Shown: positions 44,085-50,496 of the stretch, one piece after another
How positions within the stretch are numbered: position 1 is the stretch's first letter
Layout: each line of letters starts with the position of its first letter
Assembly (NCBI GenBank): GCA_913775005.1
Contig: CAJYKY010000383.1
Span: 1 to 55,190 of the forward strand
Length of the DNA stretch: 55,190 nt
Source of the DNA: an uncultured Achromobacter sp.
GTDB taxonomy: Bacteria; Pseudomonadota; Gammaproteobacteria; Burkholderiales; Burkholderiaceae_B
Direction: 5' to 3'
Program-made: the position numbers and the translations under genes
Notes under the pieces: model-generated
What the model saw: the letters and a program-made list of their open reading frames with translations, nothing else
Database searches by the model: none
Told to the model about the DNA's origin: nothing

Positions 44085-44981
44085 TCACGCAATCGGCGCG
44101 GGCGGCTCCGCGCCCAGTTGCGCGGCCTTCATCTCCATCAACAAGCTGTGCAGCATCTCGGTGGACAAGCCATGCAGCACCAGGCGGTAGCCCGCGCGCA
44201 GCGTCGACAGCGGCACCAGCGGGTGGCTGTTGTTGACCAGGATCAGGTGCTGCGGCGCGCCCAGCAACTTGGCCGCATAGATGCCGATGGTCTCGTCCAG
44301 CTGTAGCGAATTGCAGGCGCGCCAGAAATCGTTGTCGGTCAGCATCAGCTGATACAGCGGCGTGAAAAGTTCGATGGCGCTTTGCAGGTCCAGAAAATTC
44401 AGCTTGCCGCGCGGCATGTCCTCCAGCTTGAGCGGCGGATCCTGGATCATCGAAAAATCCACCGACTCGGGCGCGTGCATTTCCACGCCCGCGTCCCGCA
44501 ACGCCTGGTTCAAGCGGATCACGAAGTTGAAGAGGTTCAGGTCATGTTTGACGAAAAGCTCGTCCGCCAAATCATCGATCTCCAGAGGTTCCAGCGGCGT
44601 CGTCGTGATCGGCACCGGGGAATTCGCCGCGATGAAGGCCAGCGCCTGCGCGCCCAGATGGAAGTGGCGCAGGATCAGCCAGTTGGCTTCGGGCGAGACA
44701 AAGCGCTTGAGCCCCCACGCCAGGATGCGGTGCAGCAGCTTGGAATGCGACCAGCGGCGCGGCAGGAAGGTCTTCACCACCTGGATCAGGATGATGAAAG
44801 CGCGCGCCAGCGGCCGCAGAAACGGCAGCAGGTATTGGCGCGACGCGCAGCTGGAATCCGTCAGCCAGGCCTTCTTCACCTTGTCCGGCAGCGGCGTGCT
44901 GCGGTCCAGGTACAAGGCCAGCCAGGGGCTAGGGTCAGCCGGGTCGTGCGGCTTGGCCAGGAATTCGGGTTCCGTGCTCAT
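44085..44981 (-). CDS. Conserved hypothetical protein of the KAS/desaturase cluster
   Basis: ATGA overlap with the upstream fusion gene; motifs PSPWLALYLD, LILRHFH, NSLQLDET; no catalytic family recognised. Confidence 0.75.
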   Translation of the reverse strand: MSTEPEFLAKPHDPADPSPWLALYLDRSTPLPDKVKKAWLTDSSCASRQYLLPFLRPLARAFIILIQVVKTFLPRRWSHSKLLHRILAWGLKRFVSPEANWLILRHFHLGAQALAFIAANSPVPITTTPLEPLEIDDLADELFVKHDLNLFNFVIRLNQALRDAGVEMHAPESVDFSMIQDPPLKLEDMPRGKLNFLDLQSAIELFTPLYQLMLTDNDFWRACNSLQLDETIGIYAAKLLGAPQHLILVNNSHPLVPLSTLRAGYRLVLHGLSTEMLHSLLMEMKAAQLGAEPPAPIA

Positions 44982-46921
44982 GCCGCATCGCCCTCCATCA
45001 CGTGGTGAAACTGCATCAGATACAGCGCGGCGGTGCGGCGCGCGGTGTCGACAATGCGTTGCTCGGCGCGGCCGTCTTCGTCGCAATCCAGCGCCAGCTC
45101 CACGGCGGACAACCAGCGCGCCAGGTGATGCTCGTCGTTATGACCGTGGTATTCCAGAAAGCGGAAAGCGTCCGGCGGCAGCGCGAGGCTGGCCTTCAGC
45201 AAGGGCAGCAGCGCCGGCACGATGCGCTGGCCTGTGCCTTCAATGATGTAGATGGCGCCCAGCAGGCCAATTGGGTCGCGCGTTGCGGCCAGGCTGTGCA
45301 GATAGGCGTTCAGCGCCTCGCCGCCGGGGTTGCGGCGCAGCGCGTCGATGCTGTCGACCGTGCCGCCGGCATTGCGGTAGTCCTGGAAAAGAATCTGGAA
45401 ATCGTTTTGCTCTTCGCCCGCATGCATGTCGATCAGCGCGGCCAGCGGCGCGTACTGTTCCGTGAGCGAGGCCGCGCCTTCGCGCATCCACTTGCTGCCT
45501 TCGCGCACCTGCGGAATCCAGTTTTCCATCCAGTTCAGATAGTCGGACGTCTGGAACTGGCGGTTGCGCAAGCGCCGCACTACCGGCGTGCGCCACACGC
45601 GCGAACGGTAGTCATGCCAGATCGCCGCAAGCTCTGTCAGCAATTGGCCCAGGCCTTGCGGCGCCATGTCGGGGTCATGCGGGGGTGCGATGGCGGCCGC
45701 GTCATCGCTTTGCTCGTGTTCGCGCGGCGGGTGCGCTACTTGCACAGCTTGCGGCGTGGCAGACGCCACGGCCCCCGACGCACCATGCACGGCTTCCGCC
45801 TCCAGCAGCATGTACGCCGCCATGAACCGGCCCGACTCGGGGATGTAGCAGAAGATCTGCTCGCCCGGTTTGATCTCGCGCGTTTCCAGGAACTCGGCCA
45901 GCATGATCAGGATGGACGCCGCCCCCGTGTTGCCGCGCCAGGCCAGGTTGCTGAACCAGCGTTCACGCGGGATCACCAGACCCGCTTTTTCCATCAAGTC
46001 TTCCACCACCGGAATAAATTTTTCCGACGAGTAGTGGCAAAGGAAGTGATCCACCTGGTCGGGATCCAGCCAGCCATCGCGCACCAGCTTGGCGTATTCG
46101 TGAATGCCGATATCGAACAGATGCGGCAACAGGCGGATGTCCTGACGCAGCGACAGCGCGCCATCGGCTTCGGCCTCGTTCCACGACGGATAATCCAGAT
46201 GCCCTTTCTGGCGGTCGGCCGACAGGCCCAGCTGCATGCACACCGGATAGTCGCCCGAGAACGAACGCTGATGCACCCATTTCAATTTCAGCCGCACGCC
46301 GCTGGAAGCGCCTGGCAGCGCACGGCCGGAATTGCCCAGCAACAGCGCGCCCGCGCCGTCCGATAGCATCCAGCGCAAGAAGTGCGCGTCGAAGTCAGCG
46401 TCATAACCGCGCGCGGCAAAGCGCGAGCGCTTGAACAGCCGCGACGGCAGTTCGCTGGCCACGGCCAGCGCGCTGGCGTGTCCGCCCATTTCGACGCCTT
46501 GCGCCGCCACCTGAATGGCCGACACGCCCGCCGCGCAGATGCCGTGCACCGACAGCGTTTCCATCGGATGCGCAGCCAGCTCGCCCTGGATCATGTTCGA
46601 AAAACCCGGCATCAACGCATCACCACCCGACGACCCGCTGGTCAACAGCGACACGGCCGACAGATCGCTGTCATGACGCCGCAGGCAATCCCGGATGGCG
46701 TGGGCGGCCAGCTGCGCATTCGTGTACACCGTCTGCCCTTCCGGGTCGATGGCGTAGTAACGCTGCTTGATGCCGTTCTCAGCCAGGATGCGGCCCTTGA
46801 TGCGCGTGGACATGCGGTTCAGCGGCGCGATGTAGCTGTCCATGGCGTCGTTGGAAACGGGTTCGCCCGGCATGAAATAACCGGCGCTTTCCAGATAGAC
46901 ACGATTGAACGCGATGGGCAT
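44978..46921 (-). CDS. KAS-III/DarB-like condensing enzyme fused to a heme-oxygenase-like diiron domain
   Basis: Cys-His-Asn triad (GICAAG, CHYSS, GNTG), VPESGRF-like IPESGRF; C-terminal HAGEE, YIIEG, YHGHNDEHH. Confidence 0.8.
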   Translation of the reverse strand: MPIAFNRVYLESAGYFMPGEPVSNDAMDSYIAPLNRMSTRIKGRILAENGIKQRYYAIDPEGQTVYTNAQLAAHAIRDCLRRHDSDLSAVSLLTSGSSGGDALMPGFSNMIQGELAAHPMETLSVHGICAAGVSAIQVAAQGVEMGGHASALAVASELPSRLFKRSRFAARGYDADFDAHFLRWMLSDGAGALLLGNSGRALPGASSGVRLKLKWVHQRSFSGDYPVCMQLGLSADRQKGHLDYPSWNEAEADGALSLRQDIRLLPHLFDIGIHEYAKLVRDGWLDPDQVDHFLCHYSSEKFIPVVEDLMEKAGLVIPRERWFSNLAWRGNTGAASILIMLAEFLETREIKPGEQIFCYIPESGRFMAAYMLLEAEAVHGASGAVASATPQAVQVAHPPREHEQSDDAAAIAPPHDPDMAPQGLGQLLTELAAIWHDYRSRVWRTPVVRRLRNRQFQTSDYLNWMENWIPQVREGSKWMREGAASLTEQYAPLAALIDMHAGEEQNDFQILFQDYRNAGGTVDSIDALRRNPGGEALNAYLHSLAATRDPIGLLGAIYIIEGTGQRIVPALLPLLKASLALPPDAFRFLEYHGHNDEHHLARWLSAVELALDCDEDGRAEQRIVDTARRTAALYLMQFHHVMEGDAA

Positions 46922-46955
46922 GGGACAGGTCTCAGGTAAAAGGTGGAACGCGGCG

Positions 46956-47864
46956 CTAGCGGACGTGCTCGGGCGCCATGCATGAACGGCTGCGCAGGCG
47001 CGGCACGACCAGGCTCAGCACAAACACGCGAAACATATAAGGCGCCAGCCCGCGTTCATTCAGCGCGGGATTGACGCGATGGCGGTAATGCTCGCGATGC
47101 AGGCGAGTCAGTTCAGACCAGTGCGCACGCGGATGTTCGTGATGCGCGGTGTGCAAGCCGATGTTGAACAGCAGCGGGTTGACCAAGCCTTCGAAATTGC
47201 GCGCGTAGTTCAGCCCGGCAACGTGGCGCGGGCCACCATCGGCATGCGCGTGTTGCAGGTAATTTGTGGCCAGCAGCCAGTGCAAGCCATGCAACTGCGG
47301 CACGATCACGAACACCAGCGCCTTGACGGGGTTCACCATCAACAGCCCGCCCCACAAGCCGAACCACGCGCCGTACTGCGCCACGCAATAGCGCCACGCG
47401 CCGGGCCAGTGGCGGCGCAAGCGCGCCAGCCACGCAAAGAACATCGGATACAGCACCCAGCCGGCCTGGAAAGGATGCAGCACGTACCCCAGCAGATGAT
47501 TCGTGTCGCCACCGAATCGATACGTGCGCGCGGCATCGCGCGCGCCGTGCTTGTAGCGATGATGGTTAGCCACATGCGCCGGGTAGAACACGAAGGTGGG
47601 ATGCCCTTGCAACAGCGTGATCCAGAAATCGGTCGCGCGATTGGTCCAGCGGCCGTGCCACATCCGGATGTGCGTGTGGTTGTGATGAATAACGCCGATG
47701 CCCAGCGTCAAGAACAGCATCAACGCATACAGCGGCCACCAGAACCCGTGCACCCACTGCCAGGCCGCCAGCGCGGGCAGCGCAGCCAGATAGGCCAGGC
47801 TTTGCCAGTCGCGACGATTGCGCAGCGACGGCAGCCGGCGCCGGGAACTAGGCGCGCCCGCCAA
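46956..47864 (-). CDS. Membrane fatty acid desaturase family protein
   Basis: His boxes HHNHTH, HVANHH, HTAHH. Confidence 0.85.
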   Translation of the reverse strand: MAGAPSSRRRLPSLRNRRDWQSLAYLAALPALAAWQWVHGFWWPLYALMLFLTLGIGVIHHNHTHIRMWHGRWTNRATDFWITLLQGHPTFVFYPAHVANHHRYKHGARDAARTYRFGGDTNHLLGYVLHPFQAGWVLYPMFFAWLARLRRHWPGAWRYCVAQYGAWFGLWGGLLMVNPVKALVFVIVPQLHGLHWLLATNYLQHAHADGGPRHVAGLNYARNFEGLVNPLLFNIGLHTAHHEHPRAHWSELTRLHREHYRHRVNPALNERGLAPYMFRVFVLSLVVPRLRSRSCMAPEHVR

Positions 47865-48624
47865 GCGATTCTCTGCGCTGGAAGGCGTCCAGCTGGGGGG
47901 CCGCCGCTTCGGCTTTCAAGCGCGTGCGGAACAGGCGGTCCATGAAGGTGAACTGAAAACCGTAATTGCCGTTGTAGCAGGCGTGGTGCAGATGATGCCG
48001 GCGGCTGGCAGCGAACCAGTGCGCATACGACACCTTCGGGAAAAAGTCGTAATTGGCGTGGCCGATGCAATTGAAAAACAGGCTGAACAGCGGCACGGAG
48101 GCCAGCGCCCAGAAACTGAAGTCGTGCAGCACCATGGGCAGCATGATCACATTGCCCAGCATCAGCGCTTCGATGGGGTGAAAGCTGTAGGTGGAAAACG
48201 GCGTGGTCACCACCGACCGATGATGCGGCAGGTGAAAGCGGCGCAGCGGCTTGGTATGCAGCAGGCGGTGGTTGATCCAGAAGTGCACGTCGTTCCAGGC
48301 GACCAGCACCAGGATTTCGATCACGACTTTCTGCCAGGTGGGGTCCGGATCCAGATGGGCCCACCCCAGTTGCAACAAACCCCACGGGAAAATCATGCCG
48401 GTGCCGAACAACAGGATGGACAGGCCCGATTGCATGAATTCGCGGCGCAGCTGGCCGGGCGCCAAGGGGCGCGGGTCCAGCGGCCGGCCGATGCCCAATG
48501 CCGGCAGCACGTGTTGCGTCAGCAGCCACGTGGCCGCGCCAAAGAGCAGATAGATGCCGCCGAAAAACAGGAGCCCCGCCAGCATGACCTGCCAGGCGGA
48601 CAAGGCTTCAAAAGCGTGGGCCAT
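47848..48624 (-). CDS. Sterol desaturase/fatty acid hydroxylase family protein
   Basis: HRLLH, HLPHH, HHLHH, NYG. Confidence 0.85.
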   Translation of the reverse strand: MAHAFEALSAWQVMLAGLLFFGGIYLLFGAATWLLTQHVLPALGIGRPLDPRPLAPGQLRREFMQSGLSILLFGTGMIFPWGLLQLGWAHLDPDPTWQKVVIEILVLVAWNDVHFWINHRLLHTKPLRRFHLPHHRSVVTTPFSTYSFHPIEALMLGNVIMLPMVLHDFSFWALASVPLFSLFFNCIGHANYDFFPKVSYAHWFAASRRHHLHHACYNGNYGFQFTFMDRLFRTRLKAEAAAPQLDAFQRRESLGGRA

Positions 48625-48757: not shown

Positions 48758-49651
48758 CTATTGGCACGGAAACTGGCGGTTCAAGCCTGCTACGGCCGCA
48801 TCCATGCGTGCCGCCAAGGCCGCGCTGGCCGCCGGCATGGGCAGGCGCAATTCGTCTGTCAACAATCCCTGCCGGCCGAGTTGCGCCTTGAGCGGACCCG
48901 GATTCGGTTCTTCAAACGCCAGCTGAATCACGGGCGCCAAGGCCATGAAGAGGCGGCGGGCAAGGTCCAGCTGCTGCGCGCGCACCGCCTGGTACATCGC
49001 AACGAACAGATCAGGGCGGATGTGCGCCGCCGCCGCGATCATGCCCGCGCCGCCCAGACACAGCACGGACAACGTTTGCAAGTCTTCGCCCGCCAACACA
49101 TTCATCTGGCCGTCGTTGATCAGCGCCAGCGTCTTTTCCAGCGACCCGCCGCAATCCTTGATGGCCGCAATGTTCGGATGCGCGGCCAGCGACAGCAACG
49201 TTGCGGTCTCCAGTGTGGTGCCGGTGCGGTAGGGAATGTCGTAGAGCACCAGGGGAAAGCGCGAGGCATCGGCCAAGCTGCGGAAGTAGGCAGCGGCGCC
49301 CTGTTGGCCGGCGCGCACGTAGTACGGCGCGGGCGCCAGAATGCCGGCCAGCGGGCGTGTGCCGAAGGCCGACAGGCGTTGCAACACATGGCCCTGATGA
49401 TTGCCGGCAAGGCCCATGATGACGGGTAGCCGGCCGGCTTCGGTCAGCACGGCGTCCAGCACGGCCAGCTGTTCGGCGTCATCCAGCGAGGCCGCTTCGC
49501 CCGTGCTGCCGCACACGACCAGGCCATCAACGCCAGCCGCCGCGTAATGGCGCACCAGCCGGCGCAACGCACCGCCATCCACGGCGCCGCCGGAAAACGG
49601 CGTCACCAGCGGCACCCAGACGCCCTGGAAAAGAGATTGTTGAATCGACAT
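48758..49651 (-). CDS. DapA-family (4-hydroxy-tetrahydrodipicolinate synthase-like) protein, probably a paralogue
   Basis: LVTPF, GSTGE, PYY, LYDIPYRTG, IKD (Schiff-base Lys), EPNPGPLK. Confidence 0.85.
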   Translation of the reverse strand: MSIQQSLFQGVWVPLVTPFSGGAVDGGALRRLVRHYAAAGVDGLVVCGSTGEAASLDDAEQLAVLDAVLTEAGRLPVIMGLAGNHQGHVLQRLSAFGTRPLAGILAPAPYYVRAGQQGAAAYFRSLADASRFPLVLYDIPYRTGTTLETATLLSLAAHPNIAAIKDCGGSLEKTLALINDGQMNVLAGEDLQTLSVLCLGGAGMIAAAAHIRPDLFVAMYQAVRAQQLDLARRLFMALAPVIQLAFEEPNPGPLKAQLGRQGLLTDELRLPMPAASAALAARMDAAVAGLNRQFPCQ

Positions 49652-49753
49652 GTGAACACTCCTTCGGTGTAAGGACCGTGGTTGGACCGTACAGAAGTGC
49701 TCGGGATATCAGTGGTGCGCGCGACAGGCGCCAAGAAGCGCCGCCAAGAGGCC

Positions 49754-49803
49754 GCTGTTCCGTCGCCCATCTGACGGAACAGCATGCTCCGGTCAGATGA
49801 GCG
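49754..49803 (-). promoter_or_regulatory. Mutually exclusive RNA hairpins in the dapA-like leader
   Basis: 11-bp stem 49754-49764/49773-49783 competes with stem 49765-49775/49792-49802, which covers the leader stop codon. Confidence 0.65.
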
Positions 49804-49891
49804 GCTGTTTTTTGGATTTCAGGCCGACGGCAGTCAGCACCACGCACAGGGCGCGGATGCAGAAAGCGGAAGAGTTGGCCTGATGAATCAT
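49793..49891 (-). CDS. Putative 32-aa leader peptide MIHQANSSAFCIRALCVVLTAVGLKSKKQPLI
   Basis: Hand-translated; ATG at 49891, AAA-TCC-AAA-AAA near the 3' end, TGA at 49795-49793; below the ORF-track cutoff; no strong Shine-Dalgarno. Confidence 0.55.
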   Translation of the reverse strand: MIHQANSSAFCIRALCVVLTAVGLKSKKQPLI

Positions 49892-49927
49892 GAATGAATG
49901 GAACGCGCGATAAGCGACGGATGCAGA

Positions 49928-49956
49928 AATCTACCGGGCGGCTGCAAGGCTGTCAA
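49928..49956 (-). promoter_or_regulatory. Sigma70 promoter for the leader/dapA-like transcript
   Basis: -35 TTGACA (49956-49951), 17-bp spacer, -10 TAGATT (49933-49928). Confidence 0.7.
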
Positions 49957-50010: not shown

Positions 50011-50496
50011 TTAGCGCAGGCTGGCCAGGAACACAGCGCACAGCGCCTGCATGCCTTGGCGGTCGTCTTCGTCGAAGCGATCGGGCACGGGGCTGTCCAC
50101 ATCCCACACGCCGATCAACTCGCCGTTATGCACCAGCGGCACCACGATCTCGGAACGCGAAGCCGCATCGCAGGCGATGTGGCCTGGGAACGCGTGTACG
50201 TCCGGCACCAGCTGCGTTTCGCGCTGGCTGGCGGCCGCGCCGCACACGCCGCGGTTCAGCGGAATGCGCACGCAGGCCGGCTTGCCCTGGAAAGGCCCCA
50301 GCACCAGTTCCGTGCCGTCGAAGAAATAAAACCCCGCCCAGTTCAGCTCGGGCAGGGCCTGGTAGGCGAGCGCGCTCAGGTTGGCGGCGTTGGCGATGCG
50401 ATCCGGCTCGCCTTCAAGCAGGGCGCGGGCTTGCGCGACCAGCGCTTTGTACAGGGCGGCTTTGGAATCGGCATGAATCGGGGCGGCTTCAAACAT
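50011..50496 (-). CDS. msrC: GAF-domain free methionine-R-sulfoxide reductase
   Basis: LNWAGFY, LGPFQGKPAC, GVCG, HIACDAASRSEIVVP, DVDSP. Confidence 0.88.
   Translation of the reverse strand: MFEAAPIHADSKAALYKALVAQARALLEGEPDRIANAANLSALAYQALPELNWAGFYFFDGTELVLGPFQGKPACVRIPLNRGVCGAAASQRETQLVPDVHAFPGHIACDAASRSEIVVPLVHNGELIGVWDVDSPVPDRFDEDDRQGMQALCAVFLASLR

Follow-up and report, generated by a model that had tools for sequence, protein, structure and literature searches.

The window analysed here, a stretch of 55,190 nucleotides from an Achromobacter contig, carries in front of a dapA paralogue a leader that is, by comparison of related loci, a real conserved cis-element, and that probably acts as a ribosome-mediated lysine attenuator of this second, predicted feedback-insensitive dapA. 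The comparison reveals a short upstream ORF (uORF), lysine codons at fixed positions, compensatory changes in three hairpins (A', A and B) and a link to the dapA paralogue, replaced once by a LysP-like permease (Table 1). Lysine control in bacteria is usually credited to a riboswitch, enzyme feedback or transcription factors, and the classical leader-peptide attenuators are trpL, hisL, thrL, leuL, pheL and ilvL, a set in which an attenuator for lysine would fill a gap. An earlier note on this DNA had proposed lysine sensing, and this reading is supported by our analysis, including the occurrence of the same leader before the permease at one locus. The alignment of related upstream regions that it had suggested as a check yielded a conserved uORF with conserved lysine codons and covarying stems, so that the lack of conservation named there as an objection does not apply.

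Table 1. Features of the leader and of the gene downstream in the window.
Feature	Position	Strand	Remarks
Sigma70-type promoter match	49928..49956	minus	-35 at 49956-49951, -10 at 49933-49928; predicted
Leader ORF, 32 codons	49793..49891	minus	N-terminal part variable, C-terminus K-x-K-K-x-x-L-x-stop conserved; no Shine-Dalgarno
Lys codons -8, -6, -5 counted from the stop (candidate sensing codons)	49808..49819	minus	
Early hairpin A'	49778..49809	minus	Last Lys and next codons pair with the post-stop segment; stop codon in the loop
Hairpin A (segments 1:2)	49765..49802	minus	Predicted ON state, ribosome stalled at Lys
Hairpin B (segments 2:3)	49754..49783	minus	Predicted OFF state, ribosome at the stop
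Spacer	49701..49753	minus	Pyrimidine-/C-rich across the leader family (candidate Rho loading site); weakly so in the window
Hairpin C	49656..49700	minus	Here pairs with the dapA Shine-Dalgarno; core motif in 48/70 relatives
Predicted regulated gene, DapA (DHDPS) paralogue, 297 aa	48758..49651	minus	Catalytic residues kept, lysine-feedback residues lost

Distribution and coding character of the leader

The leader, which many Burkholderiales carry, was found at 26/26 genus loci and, overall, in nine families belonging to two orders. A protein search recovered orthologues of the downstream gene in 24/24 genus relatives. All 25 genus loci compared (the window's included) and the locus L031 share the GLKSKKQPL[I/V]-stop end and keep the hairpins, while the N-terminal codons of the uORF vary among these 26 loci. 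An order-wide draw added, in six other families, 13 orthologues with a K-x-x-K-x-x-L-x-stop leader, besides one orthologue (L045) whose leader is disrupted; in the same draw, the leader was absent from 13 distant-paralogue or canonical dapA loci. Bordetella, Paraburkholderia, Paucimonas, Pseudorhodoferax and Ideonella are among the named leader-bearing loci. At L045, what appears by eye to be the end of an insertion-sequence-like gene splits the uORF from the hairpins upstream of dapA.

A gene-blind scan of metagenomes with a DNA pattern returned at least 120 loci; among the matches listed, a dapA-like gene lies directly downstream in 112/120, and the other eight comprise six that are cut off, one dapA remnant (by eye) and one LysP-like permease. 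From 229 copies, 82 representatives were chosen, on which a covariance model was built. This model was matched by 21/151 genomes of the window's own family (window included), by 13/40 genomes of family f5 and 10/40 of f36 and, as strong hits, by 3/41 of f32. Family f254, which belongs to a different order within the class, had the element in 6/40. Each strong hit inspected, among them all but two of those in f254, adjoins the same dapA paralogue. Across a phylum-wide draw of 150 genomes, strong hits were restricted to f36 and f254. The DNA pattern in its strict form gave no match in 400 class-wide genomes and proved too strict, as the covariance model later matched f254. Four weak model hits (L302, L303, L338, L339) were rejected as chance-like on inspection. 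The model found the leader at 0/25 other lysP-like loci and, among 19 other dapA-type loci, just one degenerate copy (L113), where a deletion takes the end of the uORF and segment 1 and hairpin B remains upstream of dapA. Two viral-contig matches came from the pattern scan, of which one was a genuine copy in front of dapA and the other arose by chance; a plasmid search added nothing useful. On one IMG/VR contig (L131:196-287, minus strand), the leader stands with its dapA at the contig end and may represent flanking host DNA.

Within the window, the near-consensus promoter described before (TTGACA-17-TAGATT) was recovered as the sole promoter-like site on the minus strand between 48000 and 51500, a match that is weak taken alone since shuffled controls of this region already yield 0.5 ± 0.8 sites. 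It was the top-scoring site at 26/26 genus loci, with hexamers and spacing unchanged and a varying spacer. The uORF with its LKSKKQPLI-stop end was present exactly as claimed, and the distance from its stop to the ATG of the paralogue (gene start at 49651), given earlier as about 140 nt, was measured as 141 nt. The closest named relatives of the paralogue gene belong to Achromobacter species. The leader of 286 nt folded better than 200/200 shuffled sequences (z -4.2), and a chance control in the same genome found an ATG-led short ORF with at least three terminal Lys codons 60-250 nt upstream of 3/1452 control genes.

Over the 81 of 82 representatives with enough flank, which are related copies so that these and the following counts are not independent, an in-frame ATG occurs 25-45 codons before the stop in 74/81, as against 5 and 9 in the other frames. 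The reading frame is open over 25 codons in 81/81 (67 and 48 in the other frames), and the length of the uORF is mostly 29-36 codons. Lysine accounts for 215/444 codons at positions -5 to -10 and for 4/1623 farther upstream. Among the metagenome matches listed, it stands at -8 in 109/120 and at -6 in 103/120, both positions lying outside the search pattern. From this coding pattern, we conclude that the uORF is under selection as an ORF. An SD-like motif precedes it in just 2/74 cases. Nine copies have their ATG placed exactly 7 nt past the predicted -10 element, an arrangement suggestive of leaderless initiation in these nine. Searches of NCBIfam and Pfam gave no match to the uORF. Two hallmarks of an attenuator are present, namely a short conserved uORF in front of the putative target gene and clustered codons for the pathway amino acid at a fixed place (lysine, with a dapA-like or LysP-like gene downstream).

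Alternative hairpins and ribosome position

Hairpins A and B fold as the earlier note had claimed, being mutually exclusive through one common strand, with energies of -25.0 kcal/mol for A and -19.4 kcal/mol for the 11-bp hairpin B. A further hairpin, A' (-11.5 kcal/mol), had escaped description; in it, the region of the last Lys codon pairs with the start of segment 2. Hairpin A is paired in 92.6% of cells across the 82 representatives, with double changes at eight pairs; 0/500 shuffles scored as high, a control inflated by the relatedness of the sequences, and slid controls reached 31-44%. The core of hairpin B is 90-99% paired, and one pair of A' is kept in 71/82 representatives compared to 37.6 after shuffling. 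The shared strand covaries with both of its alternative partners, as seen from a three-way combination that reads A-T-A in 55 and G-C-G in 13 of the 82 sequences, and from a second one, joining an A' pair with B, that reads C-G-C in 20, A-T-A in 19 and G-C-G in six. Of the Lys codons, -8 and -6 fall outside the stems; the last one, like the stop codon, falls within covarying stems.

The effect of ribosome position was modelled by folding the leader with a masked ribosome footprint, using two footprints plus a largest one. Before segment 3 is transcribed, hairpin A was the predicted fold in 82/82 sequences. With the A-site at codon -5, mean P(A) came to 0.53/0.49 for the two footprints; it fell to 0.34/0.08 when the A-site was at -4 and to 0.06/0.03 when it was at -3, and P(B) was 0.88 with the ribosome at the stop. 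In the model, A persists to codon -5 and collapses at -4/-3, and the end of the Lys cluster thus falls roughly at the farthest position that still tolerates A; with the largest footprint, codon -5 already favours B (0.24/0.68) and the boundary shifts to -6. At equilibrium, A beats B in only 44-55 of the 82 sequences when the ribosome is stalled at lysine, and the model therefore requires co-transcriptional kinetics. The mutual exclusion of the hairpins is borne out by covariation, and their dependence on ribosome position comes from the folding model only.

According to the proposed mechanism, a ribosome stalled anywhere from codon -8 to codon -5 would keep segment 1 accessible, and hairpin A, the first to form during transcription, would then persist. 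A ribosome that has moved past codon -5 and stands at the stop would melt hairpin A and allow hairpin B to form. Scarcity of charged tRNA-Lys would hence stall the ribosome, retain hairpin A and turn the second dapA on; the assignment of ON to A and of OFF to B is what we infer from the logic of the pathway.

The second dapA and permease genes as predicted targets

The paralogue scored 218.7 bits against the dapA family TIGR00674 (cut-off 206.15), a narrow pass, and dapA was its best family match by a wide margin; the canonical dapA of the same genome reaches 351 bits and shares about 35% identity with it. In DHDPS residue numbering (T45, H56, E84, Y107, Y133, R138, K161), the catalytic residues T45, Y133, R138 and K161 are kept in 47/47 leader-linked proteins and Y107 in 46/47. 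H56 is changed to Q in 40/47, and at position 84 E is outside the five commonest residues among the 47 proteins; the canonical DapA of the genome retains both H56 and E84. We predict from these residues that the paralogue is a feedback-insensitive dapA copy, and as such it would have to be controlled through its expression. If true, the leader would explain a second dapA without feedback residues, control having moved from the enzyme to the ribosome. Changes at E84 desensitise plant DHDPS to lysine feedback, as stated in the available text of PMC8821502, and a different DapA paralogue of Pseudomonas, PA0223, had no activity in one study (available text of PMC3281039).

A quick tree of 50 proteins placed the paralogue clade apart from canonical dapA (SH-aLRT 98). 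All intact leaders fall in two subclades (18/20 and 13/14 rows), fractions that are not unbiased because some rows were chosen through the leader. Before a sister-class dapA paralogue, a small ORF of about 80-100 aa (L053:1168-1482, plus strand; G000:C177) takes the place of the Lys leader, and the same arrangement was seen at L026, L037, L040 and L050-L052. These small ORFs had no Pfam match, and their pattern, ACT-like by eye, could indicate a protein-based alternative control.

At the single permease locus, the leader (L182:1175-1266, minus strand) lies directly before the gene (L182:2-1111, minus strand) on a metagenome contig of 51% GC; it is of the canonical type with two Lys codons. The best family of the permease was PRK10836 (565 bits vs 337 for the next), which we take to be the LysP family. 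An unrelated Q-rich repeat protein is encoded upstream at L182. A paralogous hairpin platform was detected in three further genomes (L304:1410-1552, plus strand, and L305 and L306; G886, G879, G897), some 500 nt ahead of a LysP-like permease. In these three variant copies both hairpins, A and B, are retained through compensatory changes, but the Lys cluster is mostly missing; their uORF ends in N-R-L-S-[T/K]-P-K-L-I, with AGG at -8 and TTA at -7. The platform is possibly an arginine-sensing or degenerate variant. Rfam gave no match to the variant region, and another conserved-looking stretch lies between the platform and the permease gene. That all these leaders constitute a widespread family of terminator-less lysine-sensing attenuators gating a second DapA and a transferred permease, a modular platform recoded by AGG to arginine in one genus, is a tentative and somewhat doubtful generalisation; if true, a rare AGG at the first sensing position would have retargeted the element to arginine for a basic-amino-acid permease.

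Alternative readings, output step and known systems

The lysine codons might be decoded slowly for a reason other than lysine shortage, such as tRNA-Lys wobble modification or general translation stress. This would fit the excess of AAA over AAG in the leaders of the representatives (231 vs 7), to which the AAA fixed in the DNA search pattern contributes, set beside an AAA share of 18.8% in 1461 genome ORFs. It would also fit the AGG-TTA variant leaders, which retain the hairpins, and the Lys-codon uORF of B. subtilis abrB, which responds to MnmE (available text of PMC13733827). In the window, the note's statement that all Lys codons of the uORF are AAA amid AAG-rich genes held for the counts (3/3, against AAA 8 and AAG 30 in six neighbouring genes), but the bias is partly structural, as the last AAA pairs in hairpin A'. 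Family f254, moreover, uses synonymous AAG at two leader Lys positions, and both types of regulated gene are linked to lysine, which makes another cause of slow decoding quite improbable. A purely RNA-level element (riboswitch-like, protein-bound or a small RNA), with the ORF as a by-product of structure, appears more improbable still. The missing SD of the uORF, the last Lys codon and stop within covarying stems and the G-G mismatch recurring in hairpin C are in its favour, whereas the in-frame ATG and open frame of the representatives, Lys -8 and -6 outside the stems, the near exclusion of lysine farther upstream and the nine copies with an ATG placed as in leaderless mRNA argue for a translated ORF.

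It is also conceivable, albeit unlikely, that the switch is driven by Lys codons and that the paralogue serves another lysine-linked aldol reaction instead of acting as a biosynthetic DHDPS. The narrow pass of the dapA cut-off, the low identity to the canonical copy, the separate clade and the lack of a close solved structure for the paralogue are compatible with such a role; against it stand the invariant catalytic residues and dapA as best family by a wide margin.

For the output of the proposed lysine attenuator, the claim that no U-tract follows hairpin B was confirmed on the leader strand of the window; across the representatives, a U-tract occurs in only 4/82, on which ground an intrinsic terminator was rejected, and a terminator lacking a U-tract is rather unlikely. 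We favour, with doubt and confidence in about equal measure, Rho-dependent attenuation as in mgtL, in which hairpin B would shut the gene off by way of Rho at the untranslated, C-rich spacer. The spacer contains more C than G in 79% of 70 leaders, compared with 51% of 276 control genes (skew 0.19 vs 0.03), the 40 nt after hairpin B in the window being barely C-rich (C16/G14). As for masking of a Rho loading site in the ON fold, unpaired pyrimidines number 18.5 in the A fold vs 19.6 in the B fold, and among the 70 leaders, 28 are more open in the B fold and 12 less.

Hairpin C, lying over the RBS, might provide a translational output, with a clearly smaller chance than the action of Rho. This hairpin, likewise absent from the earlier description, carries the recurrent G-G mismatch. 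The dapA SD has an accessibility of 0.31 over 50 leaders, compared with 0.42 over 150 control genes. When the stop-codon loop was tested for pairing with an SD-adjacent motif, the mean z was -1.3 (29/70 below -1.64); the sequence types of the two sites co-occur (50/54 vs 1/14) but track two clades. Two other models failed. The first, unmasking of the RBS by a freed segment 3 that draws away the anti-SD, found no support in equilibrium folding: SD accessibility stayed at 0.34-0.35 in all four ribosome states across 70 leaders, and segment 3 paired with the spacer no more strongly than in shuffles (mean z -0.09; 8/70 below -1.64). The second, frameshifting at lysine-starved codons that would let translation read through the leader, was rejected, the +1 frame being open in 25/70 vs 24.4 expected and the -1 frame in 35 vs 31.2.

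The leader resembles classical attenuators, and also the Corynebacterium ilvB uORF (available text of PMC11109978), in its short uORF with cognate codons near the end, its alternative hairpins and the biosynthetic gene downstream. It differs in that the cognate amino acid is lysine, the uORF lacks an SD, a ribosome stalled on it is predicted to let the first long hairpin form rather than block it and, compared to the trp/his type, there is no intrinsic terminator. Known uORF-controlled Rho-dependent attenuators comprise Salmonella mgtL, corL and mgtM as well as tnaC, speFL and Bordetella cruR (available text of PMC12360218). As in these, the speed of uORF translation would refold a leader that lacks a U-tract and may offer a C-rich untranslated stretch, and stalling, which gives ON in the mgtL type, is predicted to do so here. 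The signals of these attenuators are Mg2+, Trp, ornithine and copper, and the available part of the same source lists no Lys-codon uORF among them.

Like the lysine riboswitch (L box), the leader would control genes of lysine synthesis and transport from the 5' end; unlike the riboswitch, it contains a conserved ORF, and its signal would be charged tRNA. The Rfam search proposed before was run and found neither a lysine riboswitch nor any other match in the window's leader or in 16 related loci. The abrB leader peptide shares with our leader a Lys-codon uORF that modulates the downstream gene, and differs in its seven codons with tandem Lys, its response to tRNA modification and its regulator target; alternative hairpins are not mentioned in the available text (PMC13733827). 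A literature search, with subscription journals outside its scope, turned up no account of a leader with Lys codons in front of dapA or lysP, and the available part of one supplement of PMC8632094 mentions neither dapA nor lysine. The element would offer a clean case of attenuation lacking an intrinsic terminator and might be used as a sensor of charged tRNA-Lys; it is compact, occurs in cultivable genera and comes with natural compensatory variants, which makes it directly testable.

Regarding the surroundings of the leader, a GAF-domain gene lies upstream (window 50011-50496, minus strand), the end of which lies upstream of the promoter in most Achromobacter/Bordetella loci. Downstream, a cluster on the minus strand (window 44085-48624) encodes a 647-aa protein with an N-terminal part that is ketoacyl-synthase III-like by eye, together with a desaturase-like ORF and a fatty-acid hydroxylase; this cluster probably serves lipid modification unconnected with the leader.
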